Shown: positions 8,781-48,316 of the stretch, piece after piece | Numbering within the stretch: the stretch's first letter is position 1 | How the letters are laid out: every line of letters starts with the position of its first letter | Sequence record: MG383452 | Length of the DNA stretch: 64,000 bases | DNA from: Escherichia phage FEC14 | Direction: 5' to 3' (one strand) | Position numbers and translations under genes: made by a program | Notes under the pieces: generated by a model | The model's database searches: none | What the model was told of the DNA's origin: nothing | What the model saw: only the letters and a program-made list of their open reading frames with translations

Positions 8781-8808
8781 GATAGTTTCCTTCTGAACGA
8801 TTTTTCAG

Positions 8809-8815
8809 TATTTAG
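8809..8815 (-). promoter_or_regulatory. late-promoter-like CTAAATA box
   Basis: Minus strand reads ctcaCTAAATActg about 30 nt upstream of the scaffold ATG. Confidence 0.4.
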
Positions 8816-8826
8816 TGAGCTGAAAT

Positions 8827-9495: not shown

Positions 9496-9502
9496 AAACT
9501 CC

Positions 9503-9820: not shown

Positions 9821-9828
9821 GCATCTCC

Positions 9829-9999
9829 TTACTGGCCGTTGTTGTTTGAATTCATATCAGCTGCGATAGAATCCAGAACATATGCTGTGCCTTGGTTTAA
9901 TAGTTCTTGACTACGTGCATCAAGTTCCATGTTGCATTCTGCAACAGCAGTTTCAGTGTCACCGTCAATTACTGCACGAACGATATCAATTGCGCTCAT
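9829..9999 (-). CDS. small hypothetical protein (about 56 aa, below ORF-track cutoff)
   Basis: My own translation of the minus strand gives an ATG ORF preceded by GGAGA; coordinates approximate. Confidence 0.3.
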   Translation of the reverse strand: MSAIDIVRAVIDGDTETAVAECNMELDARSQELLNQGTAYVLDSIAADMNSNNNGQ

Positions 10000-10040
10000 G
10001 ATTTTGATCTCCGAATTAATTTTCTATATTTAGTTGAACT

Positions 10041-20703: not shown

Positions 20704-23700
20704 TTATGCCAGAGCAATAAGACGGAAGTCTTTAAATGAAGGAGGAGCAACGCGGTTCCCCCGTACAAGCGCTCGGACTTTCAGGCCAACAAACGGGTTA
20801 TTGCTCGCCACAGTCTTGTCATACTCATATTCAAAGAATGTGGAACCGTCGTTAACCAGAGGCGAAGTTGGGGTGACGTCTTCCCAAGCCACACTATCCA
20901 TCTCTTGCCCTGCTCGTAGAAGTTTCACCTGCACCTTCATCGAAGACTGAGATGGGAGCATTGCACCAAAGAACAACTTCACAGTAGAACACGGATTATC
21001 AAATCCGATGTCCTTTGTCACGTATTTGAAGACATCTTCAAATGGATCCACACCGTATGAGTTGAAGATTACGCTCAGGTCATCGCCATCAATCATTGGA
21101 GCAGTGTACACGTTGTTTTCACTACGCGTCATGGTGGCTCGGATTTGGAAATCCCCGACCTGACGATAGATACCTTCAGTCGGCAATGCCACGTCAGTGT
21201 CAGTTTCAAACTCAGCCCAATCAGACATAGAATTTGAAGTGGCATCGCGATAACGGTATTCCAATTTCAGAATTGAACCTTCCAGAGCCGAATTGGTAAC
21301 GCTGGCATAGAACATATCAACCAGATAATTGCCCAAGAAAGAAGCATTATCTCCACCGATTTGTCCATTGCTGTCTGCTGCCGTACCGACGTCAATCTTG
21401 AATGAAGTATAGCTCGCATCTGTCACAGTAAACGTTTTGTTAAGTTGTTCAGGAGTAAAGCCACAACCGCCTGTCAATTCAGAAAGAGTGACATTGTTCC
21501 CAGCAACCAAACCATGACCAGGTGCAAACACAGTCACAACAGAAGACCCGCTTACGCAGTTCAGAGTGTTCAATCCCAACGGACGTTGTTTTGGCCCGAG
21601 CTTCGGATCAAATGTTACAACGTTCTGTCCAGCCGCAAAGTTGCAACGATATATGCGGAATTTCATATCGGCCATTTGGTTCGGAGACCATGTAGAACCG
21701 TTTGAAGAAGTGAAGAACACCCCTGTATACGGTTGTTTGGCGATATATTCGTTGGACAGAAGGTTTTTCTTGCCCATTTCCGCGATATACGCGTTGTAAT
21801 CCTGAGTATTCGCCAACAAAACGATAGCAAACTCAGTCGATGCTTGCAGATACACCGGATAATCAAAGGTGAACTTCGTACCGCCGGAAGAGTCTGTAGA
21901 GATCGTCACTTCAGACGGGTTCAAAGTTTTACGAGTAATGACTGTATGAGAAGGTAAGCCATTCTCCATCTCGCGAATTTCCAGAGTGATCGGAACATCA
22001 CGTGACTTGGTAGAGAAGAATACTTCCACGCCTTCGATATACTCGCCGCCATTCTTAGTCGCCACCATAAACGATTGGGCAATCGGATCACGCCATTGAT
22101 CAACAACCACTTCAGAAGTAGAAGTTTCGGTGCGAGTACTAGCAGTGTAACCCAGGACACGAGTGTTGACAAAGGTCTTTTGAATACCTTGTTTCTTACC
22201 GAAAGATTTATGAACAATTTCTGCATTGGTCAGTGTATCATCCGCAGATTTACTGTCAACAGGGCTATCCGTTAAGCGGAACACGTTGTCACCTGTGTTG
22301 AACTTGATTGTATCGTTCTGTGGAACGCGGAATACACCTTTAACAGCACCATTGGCATCAGTGGTGATTGGGTCACCGAAATTACCACCATTCGGTTTGC
22401 AATACAGATTGACGTCACGACCAGAGAAGAACGCATACATACGAGTGAAAGGTCGCAGTCCAGATGCGTCGAAAGAAATATCGATCTCGCGCATGTATGG
22501 GATAACTTGCGTCTCCACAATCTGTTCGCCAGTCATGGTCGTGGTTGTTTTGTCCGTGTATGTATATGTGGTGACATCACGGGCAGAAACAGTCGTGCGG
22601 TAACGATATCCCCACCACACACCACCAGCACCATGCGGCTCCCAAACACGATCAGAAACAGAAACAGTCCGCCATGTTCCGTACACTGAACCTTCTTGTA
22701 CAGTACCACGGGTGTTGATCGTTTCATTGATAATACGCGGTGCAACATAATAGTTTTCGAACCAGTAGTCTGTGGTCGGGTTAATCTTCAAGAAACCTTC
22801 CCAATTGAATACTGCATACGGGTTAACGTTGATCGTCGTCGTCGCATATTCTTGGTTCACTGAGATTTCAGGCGTGTAATTGCAAACCACCATCCCATCC
22901 ATCACTTTGTTCCAGCCAACAGGAGTCATGTCAACAACGTTCTGTTGTACAAACGGGCGTAGACGTCCGTTTTCGGTATCGATAGAACCCATCCAATCTT
23001 CAGACAAGTCATCAATCAACCGGAAGTCTTTGAACGGATCAGCTGCAATACCATTTTTGAAACGAGGATTACCCGTGATGGGGTCAAACACTTGCTGTGT
23101 CATCGCTGAAGATTCCAGCTGTGACAGAGAGGTATAGTATTCAACATTGGAAATACGGGTTTCCAGTTTACCGATATCGCGCATTGTATAACGACGATTA
23201 TCAATAGTTCGAATTTGGATATCATCAATATTCGGTGTATACGGCGGGATCAACAATTCATACAAACGCATGGCGTTCGCTGGGATTGCTGGAGAAGCCA
23301 GATTATTAGAACTGATGCCTCGAGCCACACCAAACACGCCGTTGTCTGCCAGATAAATCGCGTCGATACGCGGCAGATAATATTCTGTGTCCAGAATAAC
23401 TGCAGTGTTTGGACGTACCATATCTGTGTCAGAAGTTCCGTTGGTGATTTTCGGACGGAAATCTAAACTATCTGCCAGGCCGTACACCGCGCCTGATGTA
23501 GAAGATGTATAATTCGGGATATCTTTATAATCCATCGAAGTATACGAATCAGCAGAGAAGAAATCACCGGAACTGTGGGCGAAGTATTGATACACCACTG
23601 TATACGTCCCTGAGATTGCTCCAGCGCTGGATAACAAGTTAGACTTGTAATACCCTGCATCACGCTGTCCGCCATCTAGGACGAAGCTGGAGGTCACGTC

Positions 23701-25542
23701 TGCGCCAGTATCGTTTTTGACCGATACCAATTTCCAACCATCGTGATTCGCCAAAGGACGGCTGGTCTGCGATGTGAACGTCACTGTTTCAGTTGTTTCA
23801 GTGATGGTCTTCGTTTTAATTGTGGCCGTGGTACGAATCATCAGCGCCAGCAAATTGATTGACTGGTTAGCATTACCACTACCCAGAGAAATCTGCAGCG
23901 CCGAACCGACCGGAGAACCAGTCAAAGACAAAGAGCCAGAGATATCGAACTGCGCTTCCGAACCATCTGATTTCGCTGCAGAGTACAACGAAAATTCTGG
24001 GGAAAAACTATATCCCAGCGGGGCTGAAATAGAACCAGAACCGCTGCTGTCTAGCGTCACCTTATAAGTTCTGAGGACTGTGTAGTTGATATCCACGGAA
24101 CCTGTTGGCGCTAATGTTTTAACACCGAAGACCGGAAGAGAGAAGATCAGGTCTACCATAGAACTCTGGTTAAACTGGTTGGATTCCAGTTCAGCAGAAA
24201 ACATGGTGATCCCACTTTCTTCATAAGACACTTTGGTGATAGTGGACGCGTCCCCAGTCACAACTAAATCACGCATATACAGGCGGAATTCAGTTGAATT
24301 GCGTTCAGCGGATATACACAACGCCGTGGCTTGAGTAGCGCCGGATGCGTTCAATAACTTGTATCGCACAGTGCGAGATATTACTGGAACACCTTTGGAG
24401 TTCTTGGTGACCAGATAATTCCCTGTAGCAACTGCGACAGGCGTGTTATTCAGGACATCGGTATCCCGTGCCTTGTCAACGATCACCAACTCTTCCCCGA
24501 CGTTTTCGATACGACGACCGCGAACATAGGAAATACCTGGTTTCATTACAGACACGAATTTACTTTCGTCGCCGCCATCAGCAGCATTGAATACACCACC
24601 GTTGTTATTGACTTTCAGGTGTTCGCGGATGTCGATCTGATGCGTTGAAACGTTGTAATCGCCGTTGGTTTCATACGTCCGTTGAGCCAACGTGTCTTCC
24701 AGAATATTATAGGTGGACTGAGTCACCATAGACTGGATTTTACCATCACGAACTTTGGCCAGTTCAACAAAGTCTTCAACCACAGCATCATAATCAAATC
24801 GAGATAAGACCAGATCTATTCGAAGACGATGAGCGCCTGGGGCTTTGGAGTTAATCGTTCCCTGAGCATTTGAATAAAGGGATTCGTCTTCAGATTCAGT
24901 CACGATGGTTTCAGTGACTTTAAATCCGACGCGGTGGGAAGACGTGTTCGAAGTTTTATCAACGATAAGAGTCGCGTCATCAACGTCTAGGAACATCCCA
25001 CGAATGAAGTAAACGCCTTTCGTCATACGAGCAACGATAGAACCAGTTACAGCAGCCGCGATCCCATAACCAATACGAATGAAATTATCATTCACGTCGT
25101 AAGTCTGGAAATACAGATTATCGTTAACATGGAATCCGTCAGCATTACCCGCTTCAGTCATCTCAAGGATGGCCAACATCGTATCAGGAGCAGACAGATC
25201 ACGTTCAAGAGACAACACACGCGCTTTGGCGTTATTGTCTTTCCCCAAAACGTAGAGTTCAGAAATACCTTCCAGATCGGTGAATTCAGTACCACCCGCC
25301 AAAGTGAATTTCAAAGAGACTGCGGCATTGGTGATCGTCAGACCGCCAGGGATAACCATAGAACCATCTTTGAACAGATGGTTGCCCAGTTTTTCAATTT
25401 GATCCTGAAGAATAGTCTGCATCTGGTTCAGTTCGCGAGTCTGAACCTTGATAGGCATCGGACGAAAAAGAATCCGTGAAAAACGTTTCCCAGGATTCCA
25501 GTCATCCCAATACGGGCGACGGTTTAAATTTGTAGATTGCAT
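20704..25542 (-). CDS. large virion structural protein (1612 aa), putative baseplate/tail-fibre-associated
   Basis: Single uninterrupted 4.8-kb ORF with GGAG RBS and a late-promoter box, immediately downstream of four tailspike genes. Confidence 0.55.
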   Translation of the reverse strand: MQSTNLNRRPYWDDWNPGKRFSRILFRPMPIKVQTRELNQMQTILQDQIEKLGNHLFKDGSMVIPGGLTITNAAVSLKFTLAGGTEFTDLEGISELYVLGKDNNAKARVLSLERDLSAPDTMLAILEMTEAGNADGFHVNDNLYFQTYDVNDNFIRIGYGIAAAVTGSIVARMTKGVYFIRGMFLDVDDATLIVDKTSNTSSHRVGFKVTETIVTESEDESLYSNAQGTINSKAPGAHRLRIDLVLSRFDYDAVVEDFVELAKVRDGKIQSMVTQSTYNILEDTLAQRTYETNGDYNVSTHQIDIREHLKVNNNGGVFNAADGGDESKFVSVMKPGISYVRGRRIENVGEELVIVDKARDTDVLNNTPVAVATGNYLVTKNSKGVPVISRTVRYKLLNASGATQATALCISAERNSTEFRLYMRDLVVTGDASTITKVSYEESGITMFSAELESNQFNQSSMVDLIFSLPVFGVKTLAPTGSVDINYTVLRTYKVTLDSSGSGSISAPLGYSFSPEFSLYSAAKSDGSEAQFDISGSLSLTGSPVGSALQISLGSGNANQSINLLALMIRTTATIKTKTITETTETVTFTSQTSRPLANHDGWKLVSVKNDTGADVTSSFVLDGGQRDAGYYKSNLLSSAGAISGTYTVVYQYFAHSSGDFFSADSYTSMDYKDIPNYTSSTSGAVYGLADSLDFRPKITNGTSDTDMVRPNTAVILDTEYYLPRIDAIYLADNGVFGVARGISSNNLASPAIPANAMRLYELLIPPYTPNIDDIQIRTIDNRRYTMRDIGKLETRISNVEYYTSLSQLESSAMTQQVFDPITGNPRFKNGIAADPFKDFRLIDDLSEDWMGSIDTENGRLRPFVQQNVVDMTPVGWNKVMDGMVVCNYTPEISVNQEYATTTINVNPYAVFNWEGFLKINPTTDYWFENYYVAPRIINETINTRGTVQEGSVYGTWRTVSVSDRVWEPHGAGGVWWGYRYRTTVSARDVTTYTYTDKTTTTMTGEQIVETQVIPYMREIDISFDASGLRPFTRMYAFFSGRDVNLYCKPNGGNFGDPITTDANGAVKGVFRVPQNDTIKFNTGDNVFRLTDSPVDSKSADDTLTNAEIVHKSFGKKQGIQKTFVNTRVLGYTASTRTETSTSEVVVDQWRDPIAQSFMVATKNGGEYIEGVEVFFSTKSRDVPITLEIREMENGLPSHTVITRKTLNPSEVTISTDSSGGTKFTFDYPVYLQASTEFAIVLLANTQDYNAYIAEMGKKNLLSNEYIAKQPYTGVFFTSSNGSTWSPNQMADMKFRIYRCNFAAGQNVVTFDPKLGPKQRPLGLNTLNCVSGSSVVTVFAPGHGLVAGNNVTLSELTGGCGFTPEQLNKTFTVTDASYTSFKIDVGTAADSNGQIGGDNASFLGNYLVDMFYASVTNSALEGSILKLEYRYRDATSNSMSDWAEFETDTDVALPTEGIYRQVGDFQIRATMTRSENNVYTAPMIDGDDLSVIFNSYGVDPFEDVFKYVTKDIGFDNPCSTVKLFFGAMLPSQSSMKVQVKLLRAGQEMDSVAWEDVTPTSPLVNDGSTFFEYEYDKTVASNNPFVGLKVRALVRGNRVAPPSFKDFRLIALA

Positions 25543-25582: not shown

Positions 25583-25681
25583 TATACAGCCAACAAACAG
25601 ATAGAAATAAAAACCCAGTTCCTCCACCTGATAGTTTTGAACTTCCAGTTCCTGTCAGGTTAACGAGACATAGCAAAAGAA

Positions 25682-25700
25682 AGCCCCCTTATTGGGGGCT
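25682..25700 (-). terminator. terminator hairpin downstream of tailspike 1
   Basis: agccccc-ttatt-gggggct with flanking T-tracts. Confidence 0.5.
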
Positions 25701-25706
25701 TGTATT

Positions 25707-27941
25707 TTAGATTGTTACGTTAGCAATACTTTCCGTGAACCAACCAGATGGAGTCTTAACTAAAGTAACCATCATCTTAGTTGCATAGTCTACCCTCAAA
25801 GCAGTAAAGGCTCCTGCCACATTAAAGTGGAATCTGTCCGTTACAGTAGGCAATGTTGTATCAGCACGTTTAAGCACTACCCCACCACCAGATGAATCAG
25901 AGATAACTGTCACACGCTGGCCCATATATCCACCGCTAAACCCACTAAGGGTAAGAGTAATACCGGAACCAGTGACTAATACAATATCAACACCATCTAC
26001 AGGAATAGATGCTAGGGTCTGAGTTGTAGTGTACTTATCAACAGCATTCTGACTAACCCCCAATTGCTGAATCTTAACTGGAGTACCGTTGCGGTTGAAG
26101 TTAATTAGGTTGGAGTCTTTGTTTACGTAAAAAGAGTAGTTAGGAATAGCGCCGGATGCGAGCATTGCTGTTTCATCTACTGACTCTAATTCTCGCAACT
26201 CTTTGTGATAGCGGTTGTAGTTTCTGTTCTGGATATACTTAGCATTCCATTGAGTAAACCAAATACCACCAAAACCACCTGATTCAGATGTAGAGATTAC
26301 ATAACCATCATCACCACCAGGCATTGATGCGATGTACCCAACAGAATCACTTGTGTTGATATCCCCAGTAGGAGCTAACCCCCAAGTAACTAGGTCACGA
26401 CTAATCCATACTCGGTAGTTAGTACGACCAATAGAATTATCACCTACACCATTAGCACAAGTAAACGCCCAAGTAAGAACACCATTAACCCCATCAAAAA
26501 TAGGAACCAGGTCACCCTTACTATCCGATGTAACTAAATCAGATAAGTGCTGCCAGTTCTTAAACTGATGATCACTGATATAGAATTTCTGAAGCCCTTT
26601 AAGGTCTGTGGTGTGGTAAGCACGAGAGTTCATCACCATACGACCATCCGGCAAAAGGTTCAGTCCGACTTCCCCACCAGATTCTTCGGAACTAAGTACG
26701 TAGTCCATGCTGTACTTAATGTCATACTTCATGATGGTAAGGAAAGAATCAACCCGTGAACCAGTGACGGTAGACACAATCATTGCCATCTTACCATCCG
26801 GTAAAACAACTGGTTTAGTTGGTGAAGTCCAGATAAAATCTGCCGTTGCTGGCTTAAGGGTAGCAGTAATGTTAGCTGGTGTACGCCATATAGTAGGAGC
26901 TTCCGCATCACAGTAGGTAACATATATCTGGGATGATGTATTAGGGTCATTGCCTGGCTGTGAGTATCCCCAACCCAACTGGCCTTTGCAGGAAGTAAAG
27001 TAACAGTATACCCGACCATCTACTGGGTTATACACAGCAGCAATCTCACCGTTCTGATACGTAGCCCCAAAGTTAGCTACCACTACCTTAGCCGACCAAG
27101 ACCACCCATTATCAATGGAGTATTTCATAACGATATTACATTGCTGATCTGGAGTAGCACCAATATCTGTATTGTTACCATGCAACTCATTACAGAAAAT
27201 CATCAGAGTACCATCACCAGTTTTAACAATCTGGGGCATACGGTAGAAGACGGTATCCGTAGGGTTAAGTTTATCAATAGCAACGTCTGGAGCAGACCAT
27301 GCTAAGTTTTTACCAGAGTGACGCTGAACGCCACGGATATGGTGATAAACATTAGGAATAACGGTTCTCACCATATTCTCTTGGTTCTGCCATGCAGCTT
27401 CTTCGGCAAATTCTTCTTCAATGGTTTTGCCATTAGCCAGTACTACCATGGATGCACCACTGGTACTGTTAAGCTGTTCCTTCAGATAAGAAGCACCCAA
27501 GCCAATCCAATTATCATCACTGGATGGTAAAGAGTTCTGAGGTACAACTTTAGGTAATGAACCATTCCAACGATACTGGATACCATTGTGGGTAAGTACA
27601 TCATTCTTTGTGGATACTATTGCACCAGTAGTAAAAGAACCAGGTAATACATTATATTCATTGCGTTGGGAAGCTAGTTCGCCCAGGTCTACAGAACCCC
27701 CAGAGTGTACAAGCAGAGCACTGGCGCTAAGGCTAATAGCCGTGGTTCCTGCTGGAATATCTACAGGCAAGGAATACGCTCTCTGTGTTTCCTTGTCATA
27801 AATAACCTTATATCCAGACAAGGACTGTCCTGATTTCGCATAAACGACTTCCGACTTTTTACACCCAAATTTACGAGCAATACTGTCTTTGTTCGATTCT
27901 TTTGAAGTAGAACCTTTTGGTTGAGCAAATTGCGGATTCAT
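25707..27941 (-). CDS. tailspike protein 1, with sialidase-like (BNR/Asp-box) domain
   Basis: N-terminus MNPQFAQPKGSTSKESNKDSIARKFG... is a module shared with the other tailspikes. Asp-box-like motifs YSIDNGWSW and SRDLVTW are present. Confidence 0.7.
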   Translation of the reverse strand: MNPQFAQPKGSTSKESNKDSIARKFGCKKSEVVYAKSGQSLSGYKVIYDKETQRAYSLPVDIPAGTTAISLSASALLVHSGGSVDLGELASQRNEYNVLPGSFTTGAIVSTKNDVLTHNGIQYRWNGSLPKVVPQNSLPSSDDNWIGLGASYLKEQLNSTSGASMVVLANGKTIEEEFAEEAAWQNQENMVRTVIPNVYHHIRGVQRHSGKNLAWSAPDVAIDKLNPTDTVFYRMPQIVKTGDGTLMIFCNELHGNNTDIGATPDQQCNIVMKYSIDNGWSWSAKVVVANFGATYQNGEIAAVYNPVDGRVYCYFTSCKGQLGWGYSQPGNDPNTSSQIYVTYCDAEAPTIWRTPANITATLKPATADFIWTSPTKPVVLPDGKMAMIVSTVTGSRVDSFLTIMKYDIKYSMDYVLSSEESGGEVGLNLLPDGRMVMNSRAYHTTDLKGLQKFYISDHQFKNWQHLSDLVTSDSKGDLVPIFDGVNGVLTWAFTCANGVGDNSIGRTNYRVWISRDLVTWGLAPTGDINTSDSVGYIASMPGGDDGYVISTSESGGFGGIWFTQWNAKYIQNRNYNRYHKELRELESVDETAMLASGAIPNYSFYVNKDSNLINFNRNGTPVKIQQLGVSQNAVDKYTTTQTLASIPVDGVDIVLVTGSGITLTLSGFSGGYMGQRVTVISDSSGGGVVLKRADTTLPTVTDRFHFNVAGAFTALRVDYATKMMVTLVKTPSGWFTESIANVTI

Positions 27942-27960
27942 AATAAGAATCTCCTGTTTT

Positions 27961-28000
27961 TCTCTAGTAAATACCCTCCGAAGAGGGGTATATTTTTAAA
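27961..28000 (-). promoter_or_regulatory. intergenic hairpin upstream of tailspike 1 (variant of the tailspike promoter-hairpin element)
   Basis: taccctc-cgaa-gaggggta hairpin, then AGGAG RBS and ATG on the minus strand. Confidence 0.35.
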
Positions 28001-30761
28001 TAGAAGAATCCAATATACGGTAACTAATTAACTTAGTAGGGTCTACAGGATTAATCAGGTTGTAGTACCGTGAAGCTACATAATCATTCTCAGAAGAGAA
28101 CATACCAACATACACTTTAGCACCTACACCAGAACAGGCATCCCCACCAGCATTGCTATCCGAGAAGAATGTTAATGAAGAAGTTAATCCGAATATAGAA
28201 TTAAATGGTACAGCTAAATAAGCGCCTCGGAATGACCGTCTGATTCTCTTACCCGTCTGAATATTAAGAATACTCCACCAGAAATATCCAGGTTTAGCAC
28301 CAATAGCTATATGATATGGCACACCACTTTGTAGTTTAAGGTCGTTAGGTAAATCCCCAGATAAAATTTGGGTTGTACCATCGCCCCCCAATAGCAAAGC
28401 AATTGTTTGTTTTCCAGAAGCGTCTATAACTAATTGAAGATGAAGACTGTTGGATGTATCACTAAACCCTGAACCAATGGCCATGAAGTTAAATACTTCA
28501 GCTCCAGATATGGTGGGTACTACAACAGCAGCCATGGTAATACCTTCTGGACCTGCTGTTCTTGAATACAGTAATTTATCTTTGTTGGCTTGTGATAGTC
28601 TCAGACCATTTACTTGCCCTACAGAAGATGGGACACTTACATAAACAGGTGTAGTGCTAACACCATCAAATGTAGGGGTCTCGTTCATGGTTTGCAAACC
28701 AGTCTTGGAATAATTAACCAATCCGTTAATGCTCAGGTCGGAATTGGTGGGGTTGATAATATTGTTATCACCAATAAAGTTAATGCCCATATAACCAGTC
28801 TCAACCACACCATTAATGGTGACACTACAATCATTAGACAGGAACTGAAAATTGCCTGCACTAGAGTTAGCACCTGAACCACTATTCGCGGCATAATTGA
28901 GTCCTACGAATCCGTTGATAACTGCATCACTTTTGTTAAATACGATGTTGTAGAAAGTGTTGTTAGCATTGATGCCGTTACGATTGGTGTTCAATCCGTT
29001 CATGGAAATTGAATATGACTCGCTAATCTCAATACCATTCCCGCCACAATCTTGTACCTCAATACCATTAATAACCATATTCTGGCTGTTATTAATAGTA
29101 ATGCCTGGAAACTGTCCTACTGTACCATAAGGTTGCCAGTTAGCCCAAATGAATTTACCGCCAATAATACGACCATTACCACAACCATCAAGAACTAGAC
29201 ATTGTTTACCGCAGGTATTAACCTGGATATTTGTCCAAGTCCAATCAGTAGTAGCACAACGGACACCCACCTGATTGATGTGGTTGACTAAAAGAGAATC
29301 TGTAGTAACACTAAAGTTACCACTATCAATATTTAACCCATATTCATCAAAACCTGCTATATGGACCTTAGAAATACACAAGTCCCGTCTTGGGTCTGCG
29401 GTAGTGTGGAACGGATAATCGGCTGAGAGACCTGAAGGAGTTTCTACATAGATACCTGTTGTGCCCGCAGTAAATGACGTGCCTTGTTGTGCACCTGTGC
29501 CATATACCCCAAAGGCGTCTAATACAATAAGGGAGCATGTATCTTTTATGGTAATACAATTCCCAGTAGCAGAAGGCAACTGATGCAACCTTGAGTAATG
29601 TAATCCAGACCCATAAATAGACGACGTATTATATTTTAACTGGATATTGCTAACGTAATGTACACCAGTTAATTGTGTGGCCTTACCACTATCCACACAA
29701 GATTGTACTGGAATAGTATCATCATTAGAACCACCCAAAGCACCAAACATGAATGGGTTAACTCTATCAGCATTAACACGTAACCATGCTGCGCCGCCAA
29801 CAGTTTTGATCACAGTACCGTTATTATCAGTCTTTCCTGTACCATCAATTAACGCACGGAATACCCCTCCACCAAGAAGAGTACCCGCAGTGTGTTGCTT
29901 AAGAATAATGCGTTGTCCATCCATAGTGGGTTCAGTATTCCTGAGATCAGCAACAGAATGGCATTCTCCAATATACTTGGCACCATCATTGCGCCCCAGA
30001 GTGTTTATCACATTAATAAATGAATCTTCTAAAGGCAACAAATCAACCTGCACATCACCTGGGTTGTAATTCAATTTCCCAGCAGATACAGAAGAAATGA
30101 CAGAACCATCAGGAATGGTTGGTAAACCATAACTGGTTTGCGTCGCTATATCATAAACAACTTTCTTCCCATCCAACAAAGATATGGTGTCCGTACTAAC
30201 GATGACTTCAGAGTCTTTTACATTAGCAGAACGGGCGATTTCTTGAATACTTCGGTCAAACGCCGGACTGATATTCGGTTGTTTAACAGACATTTCAGCG
30301 ACTACCCAAACGCCTGCAGTCAGTGCAGTTTGCAAAGACACTTTCCCTGTCGTGCTGTTATAGGAATATTCAATTTCGGGTGTTTTGTACTCGCCACCGA
30401 TATAAAGAGATTGGACACCATAGGATGTGAAATCAGGAGTGAACTCGGTTTCACCCCCTACGGCTTGAAATTTGTATATGCGGATACCTTTGGCTGTATC
30501 TTCTGGCGAAAGAATTTTATCGAATAAGCAATACACAACATCGCCTTTGGACAATGCGCGCCCGAGATTCAACGTATTTCCTTCGATTTCAAAGTTGTCT
30601 AACGGAACTTGCATACCACCGTTGATTGTGACTACGCCAGTGACAGGATAGAACGGCAAGGAAAGGAAAGTTTCTCCACCAACATTTGATTTATACGTGA
30701 AAGGAATCTGGTGGGGAGCTGTGATTACGCCGCCGAATAATTCTTCTACATTTCTGGTCAT
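27996..30761 (-). CDS. tailspike protein 2 (right-handed beta-helix-like)
   Basis: 921 aa from the ATG preceded by GGGGTATTTTCAA, matching the start context of the other tailspikes. Gly/Asn-rich repeats (GGKFIWANW...NGIEVQDCGGNGIEI) typical of beta-helix fibres. Confidence 0.7.
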   Translation of the reverse strand: MTRNVEELFGGVITAPHQIPFTYKSNVGGETFLSLPFYPVTGVVTINGGMQVPLDNFEIEGNTLNLGRALSKGDVVYCLFDKILSPEDTAKGIRIYKFQAVGGETEFTPDFTSYGVQSLYIGGEYKTPEIEYSYNSTTGKVSLQTALTAGVWVVAEMSVKQPNISPAFDRSIQEIARSANVKDSEVIVSTDTISLLDGKKVVYDIATQTSYGLPTIPDGSVISSVSAGKLNYNPGDVQVDLLPLEDSFINVINTLGRNDGAKYIGECHSVADLRNTEPTMDGQRIILKQHTAGTLLGGGVFRALIDGTGKTDNNGTVIKTVGGAAWLRVNADRVNPFMFGALGGSNDDTIPVQSCVDSGKATQLTGVHYVSNIQLKYNTSSIYGSGLHYSRLHQLPSATGNCITIKDTCSLIVLDAFGVYGTGAQQGTSFTAGTTGIYVETPSGLSADYPFHTTADPRRDLCISKVHIAGFDEYGLNIDSGNFSVTTDSLLVNHINQVGVRCATTDWTWTNIQVNTCGKQCLVLDGCGNGRIIGGKFIWANWQPYGTVGQFPGITINNSQNMVINGIEVQDCGGNGIEISESYSISMNGLNTNRNGINANNTFYNIVFNKSDAVINGFVGLNYAANSGSGANSSAGNFQFLSNDCSVTINGVVETGYMGINFIGDNNIINPTNSDLSINGLVNYSKTGLQTMNETPTFDGVSTTPVYVSVPSSVGQVNGLRLSQANKDKLLYSRTAGPEGITMAAVVVPTISGAEVFNFMAIGSGFSDTSNSLHLQLVIDASGKQTIALLLGGDGTTQILSGDLPNDLKLQSGVPYHIAIGAKPGYFWWSILNIQTGKRIRRSFRGAYLAVPFNSIFGLTSSLTFFSDSNAGGDACSGVGAKVYVGMFSSENDYVASRYYNLINPVDPTKLISYRILDSSI

Positions 30762-30770
30762 TTGAAAATA

Positions 30771-30810
30771 CCCCATAAAGGATTTGCCAATATGGGGTAT
30801 TTAGGCTGAA
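30771..30810 (-). promoter_or_regulatory. late promoter CTAAATAcccc fused to a 5' hairpin whose 3' arm GGGGTATTT precedes the ATG
   Basis: Minus strand reads cagcCTAAATAccccatattggcaaatcctttatggggtattttcaaATG; inverted repeat taccccata / tatggggta. Confidence 0.5.
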
Positions 30811-30866
30811 CTAATAAAATTTATAATAAGATCCCCCCGCTTTTGGCGAGGAGGGATGGTTGTTAA

Positions 30867-32999
30867 TCATATCAATCCGTAAATGACATTGTGTATTGCG
30901 ATACCACCAACAATAGAGGAAACATTGAAATTAATTTCAGCTTTGTAAGCTCCTGGCGGAACGCAATCCACCAAAGCATAAAAGTTGAACGTGTTTCCTA
31001 CTGGGATGTTATATCCTATGGAATCCGCGACAGCATTTCCTTGCTGGTCCAGGAATCTAATTGATGCCAGGGTGGTGGTTGTATTTTTAGCCCAAAAACC
31101 AAGTTGAAAATAACGCCCAGGCTCACAGTCAATGATTGTCTGGGTGAAATTAGCCGCTGCACCCACTGATGGTACGGATAAGACAAAAGAAGTTGAAAAC
31201 ATTAAATCATTAGGGACATCATTTCCTACAGTAGCGGTGACAACGCCGGATCCAGTTTGTGACAGCGCCCAGTTAGATATATTATTAAACTGTCCTGAAC
31301 CGTTACTAATACTGTTTATATGAGGGCTTACAATGCATCCTAAATCCCAGTTACTTGTGATAAATCCTGCGCGTGGATAGCAACCTCTAGACATTACTTT
31401 TTTACTTAATCCGCCTATCAACTGCCTTGTGGCAAATCCAGTAGCAATCGTTGTATTCCCATAGAGTGGTAGCGAACAATTATTTAGAATAACAACCCCA
31501 TCCCCGTTGTTTACAATAGGTACTGTAGAATAATCATTTGGCAACAGTATCGTCGAATCACTGATGCTTAATCGTGAACTACCATCCACAGTAAACCCAA
31601 CGAAACTCTGACCTGGTTGATACTCAATGTTACCGTTTGTGAAAACCATAGTTGCGTTATCAGATAACGCGACAACAGGGTCAAAATATCCTGATTTTTT
31701 ACCTGCTGGCAGAGAGCAGCTATCGAATATAAATTGACCATTAACAAACGTGAAAGGTCCACCGTTGTCAACCATCCAACAATGATTAAATTTTATAACC
31801 TCACCGGAATTCGCTGGTGAATTGAAAATAACAGAATTTGTAAAACTTCTGGACAACGTACATTTATCAAAAAGAATACGATATGCATTATCAAGAAACT
31901 CAATTCCGGCAGTTGAGATAAACCCGCAATTAGATATTCTTAACTCTGAGACTTCTCCACTGGTAGAACCACCGATCGCCAATTTCCTGGTCCCTTTTCC
32001 AACAAATGACACTCCAGTCATTAACGCAGTTGCGTTAATTACATCTCTATTGGTGTAATCCGTGTCTGTATTAACAATGGTTAGATAGTAGCCGCCCGTT
32101 GCAGATGCAGATTCTATTAGAGTACATTTATTTTTTCCAATAAGTGCACCTTTTGCTATATCAAAAATAATCGGTGTTGTTATCTCACCAGAAACAGGGA
32201 CTACACAGTCAAATCCGACGGCATTTATTTTATTGATGAATATAGCCAAATCTCCGGTTCCTGTATAACCAGCTTCGTACACATCCACCACACCGTTGAA
32301 TAATTTCCTTTTCCAAACGACACCATTGCCTTGGAAAGTAACGATATTATCTACCACAGTATCTGAGTTAACAGCCACCATAACACCGCCACCAAGATTA
32401 AACCCGTCAACATACGAATCAAGAATTATAGAATCACCAATTAATCCTGCTATTGATGATAATTCAGAAACTGATGATACGGTTCCTATATAAGATAAGC
32501 CATTCGGTTTATTTAAATTACTTTTCAGAGATGCAACACCAACACTCAACCATGCACCTAAACCAACGCCACCAGATGTTTCAGGTGTTGAGCCAGCATC
32601 GACAGTTTTAGGAAGTGAACCATCCCATCGATATTTTTTATCATCGTGAACAAGAAGTTCATTTTTCACATTAATGATATGGCCGAAATTAAAAGAACCA
32701 GGTAAAGTCACATATTCTTCGCGGCTTACTGCTAATTCCCCAAGGTCAACAGAGCCAGCGGAATGAGTGAGGATGGCTTGTTCGTTCAGGCTTATCGCAG
32801 TCGTTCCTGAAACAATACCCGAAGGAAGAGAATAAGCCCGTTGGGTAGACTCATCATAAATTACTTTAAATCCACCGAGATCAATACCGACAGTGAAATA
32901 AATGACTTCGTCTTCTTTGACACCGAAATTTCGAGCGATAGATTGTTTGTTAACTTCTATGGAAGTGGAGCCGCGTGGTTGATTGAATTGAGAAATCAT
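30867..32999 (-). CDS. tailspike protein 3
   Basis: N-terminus MISQFNQPRGSTSIEVNKQSIARNFG... is paralogous to the tailspike 1 N-terminal module; beta-helix-like body. Confidence 0.7.
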   Translation of the reverse strand: MISQFNQPRGSTSIEVNKQSIARNFGVKEDEVIYFTVGIDLGGFKVIYDESTQRAYSLPSGIVSGTTAISLNEQAILTHSAGSVDLGELAVSREEYVTLPGSFNFGHIINVKNELLVHDDKKYRWDGSLPKTVDAGSTPETSGGVGLGAWLSVGVASLKSNLNKPNGLSYIGTVSSVSELSSIAGLIGDSIILDSYVDGFNLGGGVMVAVNSDTVVDNIVTFQGNGVVWKRKLFNGVVDVYEAGYTGTGDLAIFINKINAVGFDCVVPVSGEITTPIIFDIAKGALIGKNKCTLIESASATGGYYLTIVNTDTDYTNRDVINATALMTGVSFVGKGTRKLAIGGSTSGEVSELRISNCGFISTAGIEFLDNAYRILFDKCTLSRSFTNSVIFNSPANSGEVIKFNHCWMVDNGGPFTFVNGQFIFDSCSLPAGKKSGYFDPVVALSDNATMVFTNGNIEYQPGQSFVGFTVDGSSRLSISDSTILLPNDYSTVPIVNNGDGVVILNNCSLPLYGNTTIATGFATRQLIGGLSKKVMSRGCYPRAGFITSNWDLGCIVSPHINSISNGSGQFNNISNWALSQTGSGVVTATVGNDVPNDLMFSTSFVLSVPSVGAAANFTQTIIDCEPGRYFQLGFWAKNTTTTLASIRFLDQQGNAVADSIGYNIPVGNTFNFYALVDCVPPGAYKAEINFNVSSIVGGIAIHNVIYGLI

Positions 33000-33005
33000 G
33001 ATAAT

Positions 33006-33045
33006 ACCCCATAAAGGATGACCAATATGGGGTATTTAGTCTGAA
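33006..33045 (-). promoter_or_regulatory. late promoter CTAAATAcccc plus hairpin plus GGGGTATTATC-ATG
   Basis: Minus strand reads cagaCTAAATAccccatattggtcatcctttatggggtattatcATG. Confidence 0.5.
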
Positions 33046-33069
33046 CTAATCAAATTTATGAACAAAGGT

Positions 33070-33100
33070 ATAATAAGAACCCCGCCGAAGCGGGGTTCTT
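33070..33100 (-). terminator. terminator hairpin downstream of tailspike 4
   Basis: gaaccccgccgaagcggggttc followed by a T-rich tract. Confidence 0.55.
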
Positions 33101-33101
33101 A

Positions 33102-36100
33102 TTATGATTCTATAATTTTATAGGATAGAGAAACATTACCATCAACTGGAGCAGCATCGATTCCTGTCGGTCTTGTTGCGGTCTTAACCATGACACCAGC
33201 GATAGTTTGTCCAGCAGTTGCACCAATATACTTAGAGCAATTTACTGAATAAAATAATTGCCTGTATTCAATATTACCTTGAACCTCACTTAGAACAACA
33301 TAGGCCGCACCAGCATTAACTGAACAGTTTGTGTGTATGTTTACCTTCTCCCCTGTGGACACTCTGAACATATGACCACCATCTGTAGATATTCCAGAAA
33401 GGCCGATTAGTGATAATGTGCCACCTGCTTTAATAAGGAAACTACTACCAGAATTTGCTTTTAAGCTCCCAGGACCTTCAAACACCACCATCGGCAGTTC
33501 TGTGTTAGATGTAATAACTGATTCTCCAGCATTAAGGTAAACACTTTTACACCTAAAAAGCTGGCATATTTTCGCAATATTAGTTAATTCACGTATAGGT
33601 TTAGTTCCATTGGTCCCCCAGTTATAATTATTACCATTCACTGGGTCTATATAAAGAGTATCTGCTTTTACACCAACAACATCTTTGATATAGAAAATGT
33701 CACCAACTTCCCCAAATTGGAATTGACTTCCCATGTTTGTACAGTCCAGTACCAATGTGGGGTAATTACCAGTACCCCTAACGAGTTTTACGCCACTTAC
33801 TGGCATTTGTCCTCTAACAACATTTCTGGCAGTTTCTGGGCAGTTTTTAAGGAAGTACATACTATCTAGATCAGGGTCTTGTCCTGAAAGACCCACTCCT
33901 GACAACGTAACATCCGAACTGGTATTGATAAGATAGAAACTATGTTTTTTCTTCCCGCCAGATGACTCAATATGGGGTTTATCAACCATAAATAAACCAT
34001 AGGAATCAGTATCTCGACCAGCGTGAACAAAGTCGAAGGATGCTTGTTCGATGATTGGGCTATTAAACTTAACCTCTGAACCTGCAAACTGAGTGACGGC
34101 AACATCACCTACCTCAGTAAATCCTGCTGGTTTATACACCGCTTGTTCCAACTCACCATTAGTATTACCAAGGCGAGAAATGTAAGCATTGTTTACAGCA
34201 GCACCGCCATTAGAGTCAATGAACACTGCGCCCTGAGTTTTATACAGGATACGTAGATTTTCATGAACAGAACCCCATGATGCTGACTGCAACAATCCTA
34301 CTCTTGGCAGTCTTGCTGTTGTAATATCGCTCCCTGTATTCTCCCCAATGGATAACCCTTTTGTAGTGCAACCTGCCCCACCTATCCATTTAACACCAAC
34401 CTTTACACCTGGTGCTGTAATCAGGTTAAGGTTACTAATATCAATTTTTCTGGCACATGTTACAGCGTCCCCATTATCAATATCTAACCCAGTAGGATAA
34501 TAATCTACATCTTTATTGAGTTTGTATGAACCATCAGGCTGTTTACGGTACACCATTAAGCTGATTGCTGCTGTATTCTTATCTACTGGGTCATAAAACA
34601 ATCCTTGCTTACACTCACGAGTAAAAAAGTTTGGTGCAGGCATTTCAATTGAAACACCTGGAGGTATGTATAGCGTCTCTGTGAAACGGTATAACTTGGT
34701 CAGGTTAATTTTTACTGCTACTTTCTCCATGTACGAGTTTACAGCCGCAGCATCAGGAAGTGTTTCAGGAACGTTGTTTATGTCTGAAAGCATTTCTTTT
34801 AATTTTGAAGTATCGTCAGCTATTCCGTCGCCTACCGCATTGTACTGTTCAGGTGTGCGTACAGTTAATACATTATTTAGCGTCCCGTGCGGATGAACTC
34901 CAATCAACGATCCATTACCGTTTGCCAGTTGTGTTCTCAATGAGGCATCACCAACACTAATCCATGCGCCAACACCAACGCCGCCTGTTGTCGCAGGAGT
35001 TGAGCCAGGAGCAACGGTTTTAGGAAGTGTACCATCCCAACGATACTTTCCATCCGTGTGAGTGAGTAATTCATTTTTAACATTGATGACAGCACCAGAA
35101 TCAAATGTCCCAGACAATGTTACGTATTCTTCACGAGATACAGCTAATGCGCCCAGATCAACACTACCAGCAGAATGCACAAGTACAGCCGAAGAACTAA
35201 GGCTGACTGCCGTGGTTCCAGTCGGTAGCTCTGGAATAAAATATGATCTCTGTGTTACTTTATCATAGATAACTTTATATCCACTTAACACAGCACCAAC
35301 ACTAAAATAAATGACCTCTGTATCTTTAACATTGGTTACACGAGCCACTTCCCGCAAAGTATAATCAATTTGATTATAGATGTTTGGCGTTCCATTGATA
35401 ATTACAACAACTTCATCCTCCGCATCCAGTTCTTGCGCAAGAGTGATTTTACTGGTTAATGGATCGAATGTGAACCCCAGATTTTTATACTGGCGACTTC
35501 CGTTTATATCAATGGCCGGAACATCATCAACAACGATGTCTAGCGTTATTTCGGTTTCGCCACCGATAGCGGATCCGCCATTGTAAATCCAGGTGATTGC
35601 AGAAGCGCCCGAACCCCCGCCGCCAGTGCCCAATTGAATAGGAGTATATTCAATCACCTGAAGTTCTGTGTTGGCTGGCAAAGAAGGACTGAAAGTGATT
35701 ACATTCCCATCTAGTGAATATTTGGATTCCGCAAGACGTTTTCCGTCAGTATACACGTCCACGATTGTTGGTGGAGTATTGAGAGTGACAGCACTTGTTT
35801 CAGACGCCAAAATTTGTGTAAAGATTTCACGACTGTAGACACGGCCTTGGCCAAGACCGACGCCGGATGTGATAACCCAACCTTGTTCAGGTCCAGACCA
35901 AGTGAACGTTGCTGATACGTTATCAGTTGTTATAGCCATGTCTTCAGTGGAGCCATACAAATTATTTCCAGAAGGAGACACGGTCAATGGGTAAGTGGCA
36001 AATTTCCCATAAGCATCACAAATAGTAACGGAATCCCCAATACGCGTAGGGGAAGGGAGAACCACTGTAGATGTCCCTGTGGTATTATTAATGAGATATC

Positions 36101-36392
36101 CACGACCTTCTAACAAATTGCTAGAGGGAGCGTGAGGGAGCGTTTCCCAGCGTATTCCACCACCCCCCAAAGACAACCAACCACCGTTTTCGTAATAACC
36201 TTCAAATTCATCACTATCAGGATTGTAACGCACAGAAGATGGAAGACCTGTAACTTCAGTATCTTCAGGAAATGTCATTACGGCACCAGGGGAATGCTCA
36301 ATAGTGCCGGAGTTGTTGAAGCCTTTTATGTTCGAAGACTCAGAAGTTTCTAAACCCAAAGGGAAAAGAGGCTGTGTTGGTTTGTTGGCCAT
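33102..36392 (-). CDS. tailspike protein 4 (1096 aa) carrying an internal copy of the shared tailspike module
   Basis: Residues about 335-480 (VKDTEVIYFSVGAVLSGYKVIYDKVTQRSYFIP...) repeat the N-terminal module of tailspikes 1 and 3. Confidence 0.7.
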   Translation of the reverse strand: MANKPTQPLFPLGLETSESSNIKGFNNSGTIEHSPGAVMTFPEDTEVTGLPSSVRYNPDSDEFEGYYENGGWLSLGGGGIRWETLPHAPSSNLLEGRGYLINNTTGTSTVVLPSPTRIGDSVTICDAYGKFATYPLTVSPSGNNLYGSTEDMAITTDNVSATFTWSGPEQGWVITSGVGLGQGRVYSREIFTQILASETSAVTLNTPPTIVDVYTDGKRLAESKYSLDGNVITFSPSLPANTELQVIEYTPIQLGTGGGGSGASAITWIYNGGSAIGGETEITLDIVVDDVPAIDINGSRQYKNLGFTFDPLTSKITLAQELDAEDEVVVIINGTPNIYNQIDYTLREVARVTNVKDTEVIYFSVGAVLSGYKVIYDKVTQRSYFIPELPTGTTAVSLSSSAVLVHSAGSVDLGALAVSREEYVTLSGTFDSGAVINVKNELLTHTDGKYRWDGTLPKTVAPGSTPATTGGVGVGAWISVGDASLRTQLANGNGSLIGVHPHGTLNNVLTVRTPEQYNAVGDGIADDTSKLKEMLSDINNVPETLPDAAAVNSYMEKVAVKINLTKLYRFTETLYIPPGVSIEMPAPNFFTRECKQGLFYDPVDKNTAAISLMVYRKQPDGSYKLNKDVDYYPTGLDIDNGDAVTCARKIDISNLNLITAPGVKVGVKWIGGAGCTTKGLSIGENTGSDITTARLPRVGLLQSASWGSVHENLRILYKTQGAVFIDSNGGAAVNNAYISRLGNTNGELEQAVYKPAGFTEVGDVAVTQFAGSEVKFNSPIIEQASFDFVHAGRDTDSYGLFMVDKPHIESSGGKKKHSFYLINTSSDVTLSGVGLSGQDPDLDSMYFLKNCPETARNVVRGQMPVSGVKLVRGTGNYPTLVLDCTNMGSQFQFGEVGDIFYIKDVVGVKADTLYIDPVNGNNYNWGTNGTKPIRELTNIAKICQLFRCKSVYLNAGESVITSNTELPMVVFEGPGSLKANSGSSFLIKAGGTLSLIGLSGISTDGGHMFRVSTGEKVNIHTNCSVNAGAAYVVLSEVQGNIEYRQLFYSVNCSKYIGATAGQTIAGVMVKTATRPTGIDAAPVDGNVSLSYKIIES

Positions 36393-36397
36393 TTGTA

Positions 36398-36436
36398 ATA
36401 CCCCTAAATGTATTCATGTCATCTAGGGGTATTTAG
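36398..36436 (-). promoter_or_regulatory. late promoter CTAAATAcccc plus hairpin plus GGGGTATTACAA-ATG
   Basis: Minus strand reads aaaaCTAAATAcccctagatgacatgaatacatttaggggtattacaaATG. Confidence 0.5.
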
Positions 36437-36438
36437 TT

Positions 36439-37629
36439 TTAGAAAGAAGCTGCAATAGAATAGTCGACAGAACAAGCAGTTGTCGTGTTTGCATTAACAA
36501 CGGAAATTCTCAATTTACCACCCACCACAGCCCCTGTGAACGTCACTGTACCGCTCGTACTTTTCTGAACCAACAACTCTGTTTTGATCGTTCCGTCACG
36601 AGTTATGGTTACTCGATATGTGTCAACAACGTTACCTGTCCCCCATTGCGCAGTTACCAGTATTTGACAAAGGTTCACCAAATCAAAATCTGGAAGAGCC
36701 GTCGTTCCAGAAGCCGAAACCGTGTATGACGACAAATTCGTTTTGGTACGATAAACGGCGTTCCCCAAACTATTGTCGATAGAGGTCATCTTGGCATTAT
36801 ACGTTGATACACTAACTTTATCACTGGAAAGAGAACTGATGCTGTTATCCAGAGATGTCATCTTCGTGTTGTACGTGCTAACCTCGACTTTATTACCCAG
36901 AGACGTATTGATATTGGAGATACTCAAATCCAATGACGCCATCTTAGTGTTGTAAGTCGAGGTGTTGACTTTCCCGTTCAACGACGTGTTGATGTTATTA
37001 ATCTGGGACTCTAAACTCAGCATATCTGCATCATACGCTGTCGTTGTCACATATCCATTAAATCGGTTATCTGCAAACAACGCATCAAAAAATGCAGTCA
37101 TTGTCCAATAACGCGCTCCAGAATCTGTTTGCACTGGAACTGAAGTCGGCAACGTTGGTCCGGTATACGCAGACAATCTGGTGAAATCCAAATTGAATTT
37201 GTAATATCCGGATGTCAACAACTCCCCAGCCAAACCAGAACCAGGCGGGGTAGTGTCTTCACTGACGCCATGCTTTCTCAACATGCTCAGGTTAACACCA
37301 TCTGTCGAGTTCGTTGGTTCATCTGTGATTGAAACGGATTTTCCAGCAGGGACTTGTATACCCCCATTGGTCACCAACAAAGCATTGAAAGTCTTTTTGC
37401 CATTGATTGTTTGTTCACCACTATCTGTCCGAATAACTTTGTTGGCCAAAGTATCATTGATTGTGTCAACAGATCTTTTCAACTCGTATGTCAGGCGAGC
37501 AGACGGTGGAAACAATGGGTCGCTGACTTCAAAATCATCAATGACGTCGTTTTTACTTACTTTGTCGTCAACAGAACCCAATATCTGATCTATCTGCTGA
37601 CCTGTATATTGACTCAGGAAATCGGCCAT
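36439..37629 (-). CDS. tail fibre-like protein with internal tandem repeats
   Basis: 396 aa with repeated ...STYNTKM(A/T)SLD.SISN... units and an AAGGAG RBS. Confidence 0.55.
   Translation of the reverse strand: MADFLSQYTGQQIDQILGSVDDKVSKNDVIDDFEVSDPLFPPSARLTYELKRSVDTINDTLANKVIRTDSGEQTINGKKTFNALLVTNGGIQVPAGKSVSITDEPTNSTDGVNLSMLRKHGVSEDTTPPGSGLAGELLTSGYYKFNLDFTRLSAYTGPTLPTSVPVQTDSGARYWTMTAFFDALFADNRFNGYVTTTAYDADMLSLESQINNINTSLNGKVNTSTYNTKMASLDLSISNINTSLGNKVEVSTYNTKMTSLDNSISSLSSDKVSVSTYNAKMTSIDNSLGNAVYRTKTNLSSYTVSASGTTALPDFDLVNLCQILVTAQWGTGNVVDTYRVTITRDGTIKTELLVQKSTSGTVTFTGAVVGGKLRISVVNANTTTACSVDYSIAASF
36785..37010 (-). repeat. about 57-bp tandem repeats (3-4 copies) inside the tail-fibre gene
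   Basis: Repeated DNA units ...catcttggcattatacgttgatac... / ...catcttcgtgttgtacgtgctaac... / ...catcttagtgttgtaagtcgaggt... corresponding to 19-aa protein repeats. Confidence 0.5.
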
Positions 37630-48283: not shown

Positions 48284-48316
48284 CTAAATACCCCATACGA
48301 CCAGTGTGGGGTATCT
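48284..48316 (+). promoter_or_regulatory. late promoter CTAAATAcccc plus hairpin plus GGGGTATCT-ATG (plus-strand copy of the tailspike element)
   Basis: atcCTAAATAccccatacgaccagtgtggggtatctATG. Confidence 0.45.

Follow-up and report, generated by a model that had tools for sequence, protein, structure and literature searches.

Tailspike gene clusters of the Ackermannviridae are defined by up to four tsp genes lying between vriC and the baseplate wedge genes (PMC10892097). The closest described system is that of phage CBA120, for which the assembly of the spikes was reported by Plattner 2019 and Chao 2022 (as summarized in PMC11721090). In passages of Sørensen et al. 2021 (PMC8432352), 99 Ackermannviridae phages were typed by tailspike protein (TSP) subtype, and Escherichia phage FEC14 was given TSP2-1, TSP3-3, and TSP4-7, with TSP3-3 found in FEC14 alone among the typed phages; the same passages describe bodies common to TSP1-1/TSP4-7 and to TSP3-3/TSP4-2 and predict recognition of O157, O78, and O21. 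We analyzed a 64,000-nucleotide (nt) window of FEC14 (sequence record MG383452; the window is the whole stretch of DNA analyzed), in which the region described here is the TSP1-TSP4 receptor-binding gene cluster of a CBA120-like Kuttervirus of the Ackermannviridae. We read this cluster as a branched, mosaic set of four spikes with a TSP1 of the type of glycoside hydrolase family 33 (GH33), an explanation that we hold, as a whole, at a probability of about 0.9. The cluster, its subtype assignments, and its body swaps are already published; the present analysis adds, for TSP1, a confident fold model, a map of the catalytic positions, and a survey of where the module occurs.

All four tailspike genes lie on the minus strand, as follows (lengths in amino acids [aa]).

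25707-27941, minus strand: TSP1 (open reading frame [ORF] A), 744 aa, an exact protein match to FEC14 ATW66765.1.
27996-30761, minus strand: TSP2 (ORF B), 921 aa from M6, which is the CBA120 TSP2 start.
27996-30776, minus strand: TSP2 from its alternative start, the first in-frame ATG (30776), 926 aa.
30867-32999, minus strand: TSP3 (ORF C), 710 aa, an exact match to FEC14 ATW66763.1, subtype TSP3-3.
33102-36392, minus strand: TSP4 (ORF D), 1096 aa, an exact match to FEC14 ATW66762.1, subtype TSP4-7.
35376-36392, minus strand: TSP4 baseplate anchor and XD1-XD3, aa 1-339 (7rej/7rfo, E 8e-218).

The region was assigned to Kuttervirus by megablast, in which 250 phage records matched and CBA120 was the best. 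Gene order is collinear with CBA120 orf209-217, flanks included, and the tailspikes correspond to CBA120 orf210-213; four adjacent tsp genes thus stand between vriC and the baseplate wedge genes, as in the family definition, and each of the four products belongs to a PHROG tail family. GC content is 0.39 to 0.41 over the spike bodies versus approximately 0.45 in the flanks. A first-pass annotation, made from the sequence alone, had called four large minus-strand ORFs of 744, 921, 710, and 1096 aa, all of which are present where it placed them, and had proposed a branched multi-tailspike apparatus, a proposal upheld by the CBA120 collinearity, the VriC and baseplate flanks, and the anchor/XD match of the TSP4 N terminus. 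Its reading of the cluster stands; the exchange of the TSP3 and TSP4 bodies relative to CBA120 was overlooked.

TSP2 is 99.5% identical over its full length to the O157-specific beta-helix TSP2 of CBA120 (PDB 6w4q/5w6p; 6w4q, E 0), from which it differs by five substitutions (D135N, S148T, D366G, A367V, and I747V). By this identity, it has an XD2-XD3 N terminus with a single TD module, and it keeps the catalytic D506/E568/D571 that were experimentally defined in CBA120 TSP2. The identity of FEC14 orf169 to CBA120 TSP2 given in passages of Sørensen et al. 2021 (PMC8432352) agrees with this value. The TSP3 head, which spans aa 1 to approximately 150, is 91% identical to CBA120 TSP3 over aa 1-163, and its body is the O78-type C-terminal beta-helix of CBA120 TSP4 (5w6h; 89.6% protein identity over aa 8-710), with 99.7% DNA identity to PhaxI TSP4 over 1767 bases. 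TSP4 begins with the anchor domain and gp10-like XD1-XD3 (aa 1-339), is 96% identical to CBA120 TSP4 over aa 1-498 (blastp), and carries as its body the Salmonella O21-type beta-helix of CBA120 TSP1 (4oj5; 93.6% identity), in which E782 and E809, the equivalents of the CBA120 TSP1 catalytic E456 and E483, are both kept. Full-length TSP4 is also present in Se-E (98.9% DNA identity), SF02, SS3, and SS9.

Relative to CBA120, then, the O78 body is found at TSP3 instead of TSP4 and the O21 body at TSP4 instead of TSP1, the O157 body stays at TSP2, the O77 body is absent, and a sialidase body occupies TSP1. The beta-helix depolymerase bodies expected for TSP2 and TSP3 in the first-pass annotation were borne out, at 90 to 99.5% identity to crystallized CBA120 spikes, and TSP4 has one as well. 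Sliding-window identity and a seven-way head alignment put both switches between lineages at the end of TD2, for TSP3 at aa 140-160 and for TSP4 at aa 460-480, and both fall within the conserved block YRWDGxLPKxV..GSTP..GGVGxGAW.SVG.ASL. The cluster is a mosaic that arose through recombination within the head module, at its conserved end. In passages of Sørensen et al. 2021 (PMC8432352), the motif GTTAVSL was proposed as the start of similarity and the recombination site. As a crossover in FEC14, GTTAVSL (aa 65/391) was ruled out, with the lineage switch approximately 80 aa downstream.

The heads themselves are shared by three of the spikes, with Pfam PF18668 (Tail_spike_N) above its gathering score in TSP1, TSP3, and TSP4. 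The similarity of the copies, with blastp E values of 1e-38 to 1e-54, far exceeds what chance would give, and their identities over approximately 155 to 170 aa are 54% (TSP1-TSP3), 49% (TSP1-TSP4), and 62.5% (TSP3-TSP4); the module that had been described as near-identical at the N termini of TSP1 and TSP3 is therefore truly homologous but, at 54%, not near-identical. The internal copy noted earlier in TSP4 is its TD head, from aa 340 to approximately 480. The motif GTTA[VI]SL lies at aa 65 in TSP1 (as GTTAISL), aa 65 in TSP3, and aa 392 in TSP4. TSP2 carries a diverged partial copy at residues 166-268 (35 to 41% over 71 to 118 aa), which the first-pass annotation did not list. The TSP1 head (residues 1 to approximately 160) is 54 to 55% identical to the heads of CBA120 TSP1 and TSP3. 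The net charge over aa 1-96 is +3 in the TSP1 head, 0 in that of CBA120 TSP1, and -5 in TSP3-type heads; TSP1 is reported to dock electrostatically on TSP4 XD3 in CBA120 (PMC11721090), and the charge of +3 fits docking of that TSP1 type.

The body of TSP1 sets FEC14 apart from CBA120, and the parts of the whole protein are as follows.

27465-27941, minus strand: TSP1 head, TD1/TD2, aa 1-159 (PF18668, blastp).
26235-27317, minus strand: TSP1 six-bladed beta-propeller, approximately aa 209-569 (motifs, AlphaFold, Foldseek).
25710-26195, minus strand: TSP1 C-terminal all-beta domain, approximately aa 583-744 (AlphaFold), kept in all full-length homologues.

As a single sequence searched with phmmer against solved structures, the TSP1 body matched GH33 sialidases (E 1.5e-9 to 8gn6/8feb), and a profile built from phage homologues alone matched GH33 sialidases at E 4.9e-11. 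A 42-sequence profile reached E 1e-85 against the PDB, a value that is partly circular because this profile includes bacterial sialidases, and we therefore take the homology from the single-sequence search and the phage-only profile. An exhaustive HMMER search returned 142 representatives at E<1e-3, of which 11 were at E<1e-30. The AlphaFold2 model of TSP1 from the 42-sequence alignment, which replaced an earlier run with nine homologues (predicted local distance difference test [pLDDT], 68), had a pLDDT of 90.1 and a predicted template modeling score (pTM) of 0.81 and showed a helical neck, a propeller of six blades, and an all-beta domain at the C terminus. Each of the best 50 Foldseek matches in the PDB was a GH33 sialidase or a KDNase (E 2.7e-19 at a probability of 1.0), with template modeling (TM) scores of up to 0.80 when normalized to Micromonospora viridifaciens 1eur; identity to true sialidases in these matches was 13 to 20%. 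The C-terminal approximately 160 aa had no Pfam match and could be a carbohydrate-binding module, a trimerization domain, or a chaperone. The model gave this domain a pLDDT of approximately 90, and fragments of it occur as stand-alone predicted proteins of 126 to 133 aa (P0033, P0034).

All six GH33 catalytic positions are kept in TSP1 (R234, D259, E424, R440, R506, and Y536). Among 42 homologues, in an alignment that reaches down to approximately 20% identity, E424, R440, and Y536 are conserved in 42/42, D259 and R506 in 41/42, and R234 in 33/42. R234 belongs to a FRIP-like motif, YRMP, at aa 233, which went unmentioned in the first-pass annotation, and the TSP1 motifs align with FRIP, VDL, TTEAQ, NMRD, KGRNH, and GYSCL of 4fj6 and 6mrv. 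The catalytic residues are spaced (25, 16, 66, and 30 residues) as in Salmonella NanH. The two Asp-box-like motifs from which a sialidase-type propeller had originally been suggested are present: SIDNGWSW (S275-W282) is canonical, its serine S275 occurring in 42/42 homologues, and SRDLVTW (aa 514-520) lacks the Gly but sits at a true Asp-box position of 4fj6; two more are degenerate. The suggestion itself is now backed by the structure prediction, the GH33/KDNase matches, and the full catalytic set. In 7/42 homologues, the Arg of the R234 column is replaced by Tyr with the other five catalytic positions kept, and these homologues may form a subfamily that differs in substrate or mechanism.

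TSP1 is identical to ECML-4 AFO10353.1 (gp189), FrontPhageNews gp214, and Sajous1 gp139 (744/744 residues), and several Kuttervirus records label the identical protein exo-alpha-sialidase; its published subtype name is TSP1-20 (PMC10892097). In CsCl-purified virions, Sajous1 gp139 gave 113 spectra and ranked in the top five proteins by abundance (PMC10892097). Absence from virions, which the first-pass annotation had named as grounds for abandoning the tailspike reading, is thus contradicted for the identical protein, although these mass spectra bear on incorporation and not on assembly of the complex. Among 50,697 phage records, the TSP1 body is 99.3 to 100% identical in 14 (13 phages), all Kuttervirus, five further records match it at <30% identity each, and there are no relatives between 30% and 99%; near-identity followed by such a gap points to a recent spread of a single allele in Kuttervirus. 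The phages with this body come from independent depositors and from Salmonella and E. coli O157:H7 hosts, and the source countries seen include the USA and UK.

Metagenome assemblies hold relatives of the TSP1 body at 44 to 78% identity, and these sit on unlike N-terminal adaptors, including T7-like and gp10-like ones. A podovirus-like prophage of Enterobacter hormaechei (GCA_051844395.1; JBPXEV010000002.1) has a single tailspike, which is a 45%-identical homologue, and another homologue lies in a multi-spike phage contig. The variety of adaptors and the sole-spike homologue together indicate that the TSP1 body is a mobile and genuine receptor-binding body. At 8001-11503 of the examined locus, the Enterobacter prophage has T7_gp14-like and SLT internal proteins upstream of the spike, an Acyl_transf_3 gene immediately after it, and the lysis cassette beyond that. 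Such an arrangement is typical of a seroconverting O-antigen acetylase that adjoins a spike for the same antigen. E. hormaechei gave the one informative prophage context for the sialidase module: 5,426 complete E. coli genomes gave no match (blastn, distant mode), and a scan of GTDB species representatives gave 102 pattern matches, of which 0 were confirmed.

Several observations weigh against the explanation given above. The Pfam BNR_2 score of TSP1 is 15.4 bits against a cutoff of 31.4, that of NCBIfam neuraminidase NF052328 is 38 bits against a cutoff of 900, and the four Asp-box positions include just one canonical box. No enzymatic or host range data for a sialidase-type TSP1 were found in the literature, and the receptor table of a 2024 review has no entry for it (PMC11721090); the words "sialidase," "BNR," and "propeller" have 0 occurrences in the searched passages of Sørensen et al. 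2021 (PMC8432352). Some Kuttervirus TSP bodies are without a detectable host and might be nonfunctional (Gil et al. 2023). The bodies of TSP3 and TSP4 are only 89.6% and 93.6% identical at the protein level to CBA120 TSP4 and TSP1, respectively, and the O78 and O21 specificities are accordingly predictions.

By homology with CBA120, TSP4 would be fixed to the baseplate by its N-terminal anchor domain and would carry XD1-3, TSP2 would join TSP4 via XD2-XD2 contacts, and TSP1 and TSP3, which are short-headed, would use their TD1/TD2 heads to dock on TSP4 XD3 and TSP2 XD3, respectively. Given the identity of the FEC14 domains to those that assemble in CBA120, the four trimeric spikes, each with a specificity of its own, probably form one branched complex, in which each body would bind and cleave its own surface polysaccharide and so open several alternative hosts. 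TSP2 is predicted to target E. coli O157, TSP3 to target O78, and TSP4 to target Salmonella O21. For TSP1, the predicted target is a glycan with a sialic acid-type (2-keto-3-deoxy-ulosonic acid) sugar, on which a retaining GH33-type mechanism would use Tyr536/Glu424 as the nucleophile and Asp259 as the acid/base, with Arg234/440/506 binding the carboxylate. That TSP1 is in fact an active retaining GH33 enzyme that depolymerizes an enterobacterial O or K antigen with a nonulosonic acid is a tentative proposal, to which we give somewhat less than even odds. Candidate antigens with nonulosonic acids include the N-acetylneuraminic acid (Neu5Ac)-containing Salmonella O48 and E. coli O104/O145/O24/O56 and those containing legionaminic (Leg) or pseudaminic (Pse) acid.

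A substrate other than Neu5Ac, namely, 3-deoxy-D-manno-octulosonic acid (Kdo; capsule or lipopolysaccharide core), 2-keto-3-deoxynononic acid (Kdn), or legionaminic or pseudaminic derivatives, as a constituent of enterobacterial O or K antigens, is quite possible for an active GH33-fold TSP1, although we would not bet on it; this would refine the reading of TSP1 as a GH33-type enzyme and not replace it. The arginine triad requires just a carboxylated ulosonic acid, the KDNases 7p1v, 7p1q, and 4m4n are structurally close to TSP1, true sialidases share with it only the low identity stated above, and an Enterobacter prophage carries a related module. By both sequence and structure, however, the best matches are Neu5Ac-specific gut and oral sialidases, and the present data do not discriminate among the candidate sugars.

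It is unlikely that the propeller is a lectin-like binder or a relic without catalysis, in a protein of which only the head would matter, structurally. The relic option has been raised for TSP bodies lacking a known host (Gil et al. 2023), and the literature assigns no host to the sialidase-type TSP1 subtype. Degeneracy at 3/4 Asp-box positions also speaks in its favor. Against it, Asp-boxes are structural and not catalytic, and TSP1 keeps all six catalytic positions of GH33, of which five show little or no variation down to the most distant of the 42 homologues; the body is, moreover, identical (99.3 to 100%) in 13 independently isolated phages, and there are other phages and prophages whose only tailspike is a homologue. 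That TSP1 acts on animal mucin sialoglycans, for gut mucus penetration or adherence, and not on a bacterial receptor is very improbable: the nearest solved relatives are indeed mucin-foraging Bacteroidota and oral sialidases (Sialidase26, P. distasonis, P. gingivalis, and T. forsythia NanH) and the literature assigns the spike no bacterial host, but the place of TSP1 in the spike complex is a canonical one for receptor binding, the Enterobacter homologue is the only tailspike of its prophage and adjoins an acyltransferase-3 gene typical of O-antigen modification, and other homologues ride on T7-like and gp10-like adaptor N termini.

The flanking genes, spacers, and regulatory sites of the cluster are as follows.

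20704-25542, minus strand: VriC/VrlC-like gene (DUF4815), downstream flank, a conserved neighbor of Ackermannviridae TSP clusters.
36439-37629, minus strand: orf215-like putative tail fiber, upstream flank, a CBA120 orf215 homologue with baseplate wedge genes next to it.
25681-25701: strong bidirectional terminator with an 8-bp stem (6 GC), downstream of TSP1 at the cluster end.
27942-27995, minus strand: TSP2/TSP1 spacer with a weak 5-bp hairpin (27974-27987) and an AGGAG ribosome-binding site, without TAAATACCCC.
30762-30866, minus strand: TSP3/TSP2 spacer with a terminator (30833-30853) and TAAATACCCC (30794-30803), which forms the 5' arm of a hairpin (-20.5 kcal/mol) that stops right ahead of the start codon.
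33000-33101, minus strand: TSP4/TSP3 spacer with a 16-bp-stem terminator (33070-33105) and TAAATACCCC (33029-33038) in a -20.7 kcal/mol hairpin.
36426-36435, minus strand: TAAATACCCC with hairpin upstream of TSP4, at the cluster start.
3053-3062 (minus), 30794-30803 (minus), 33029-33038 (minus), 36426-36435 (minus), and 48285-48294 (plus): all TAAATACCCC sites of the window.

The spacers are 54, 90 to 105, and 102 bp long, and a terminator-like hairpin follows every tailspike stop codon. The motif TAAATACCCC, a published Ackermannviridae regulatory motif (PMC7283392), occurs at 5 sites in the window versus 0.11 expected and stands upstream of TSP2, TSP3, and TSP4, so that the short promoter-hairpin spacers described in the first pass were confirmed. 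Each of the five TAAATACCCC sites makes up the 5' arm of a strong hairpin, with energies of -17.8 to -20.7 kcal/mol, and the opposite arm, GGGGTAT, on the 3' side stops 2 to 7 nt before the ATG, without a canonical Shine-Dalgarno sequence. If TAAATACCCC is a late promoter, the hairpin could form only in read-through RNA from upstream, which suggests a degree of coupling of promoter use and translation initiation. The start of TSP2 is inconsistent between records, being placed for 926 aa in FrontPhageNews and BPS3 and for 921 aa (30761) in CBA120 and the crystal structure; the first in-frame ATG (30776) falls within the 3' arm of the TAAATACCCC hairpin. Among the four spike genes, only TSP1 is without the TAAATACCCC-hairpin cassette, and this lack, together with the weak hairpin and AGGAG in its spacer, may reflect cotranscription of TSP1 and TSP2. 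The 396-aa orf215-like protein has several tandem repeats of approximately 22 aa (…STYNTKM(A/T)SLD(L/N)SIS…L(G/S)…KV…), and its match to the lactococcal BppL_N baseplate domain was below threshold only.

The cluster sets the host range of FEC14, a phage of the O157:H7 biocontrol type, and is a natural example of receptor-binding bodies moved among the four positions of a branched spike, as is now engineered in Kutterviruses. Its remaining value lies in the sialidase-type TSP1, which is carried by at least 13 phages, is abundant in virions, and has, as judged from its conserved residues, a complete GH33 active site. Identification of its substrate would fill a gap in the prediction of Kuttervirus host range and might add an enzyme class to the tailspike toolbox. 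No characterized GH33 tailspike was found in the literature; were TSP1 an active GH33 enzyme on a nonulosonic acid antigen, it would be the first, mechanistically unlike the inverting GH58 K1 endosialidases, and its body would be a ready module with which Kuttervirus phages for reporter or therapeutic use could be redirected to sialylated serogroups.

Among known systems, FEC14 is compared first with CBA120 TSP1-4 (PDB 4OJ5, 5W6P/6W4Q, 5W6F/6NW9, 5W6H, and 7REJ/7RFO), with which it shares genus, gene order, flanks, TD1/TD2 heads, spacer motifs, and a TSP4 anchor/XD region that is 96 to 100% identical; it differs in its permuted bodies and in a TSP1 that is a sialidase propeller, whereas that of CBA120 is a beta-helix. 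The subtypes and the TSP1-1/TSP4-7 and TSP3-3/TSP4-2 swaps given for FEC14 in passages of Sørensen et al. 2021 (PMC8432352) agree with the present results, and TSP1 of ECML-4, FrontPhageNews, and Sajous1 shows no sequence difference from that of FEC14. With the GH33 exo-sialidases (8FEB, P. gingivalis PG_0352; 6MRV, Sialidase26; 1EUR, M. viridifaciens), TSP1 has in common the propeller, a FRIP-like motif, the Arg triad, the Asp acid/base, the Tyr/Glu pair, the canonical spacing, and one canonical Asp-box. Unlike them, it has its propeller fused to a tailspike head, a helical neck, and a C-terminal beta domain of approximately 160 aa, its Asp-boxes are mostly degenerate, and it is presumably trimeric. 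The GH58 endosialidases (K1F, K1E, and phi92) resemble TSP1 as phage tailspikes built on a sialidase-type propeller with an acidic nonulosonic acid polymer as the target. They are nonetheless far from it in Foldseek, where the K1E spike ranked 41 in BFVD (E 1.6e-6, TMq 0.38); GH58 entries were absent from the best 50 PDB structure matches and from the TSP1 sequence searches, and close similarity of TSP1 to the K1F/K1E endosialidases was not found. GH58 enzymes are inverting and lack the Tyr nucleophile and the Asp acid/base; TSP1, in contrast, has every residue of the retaining GH33 set.

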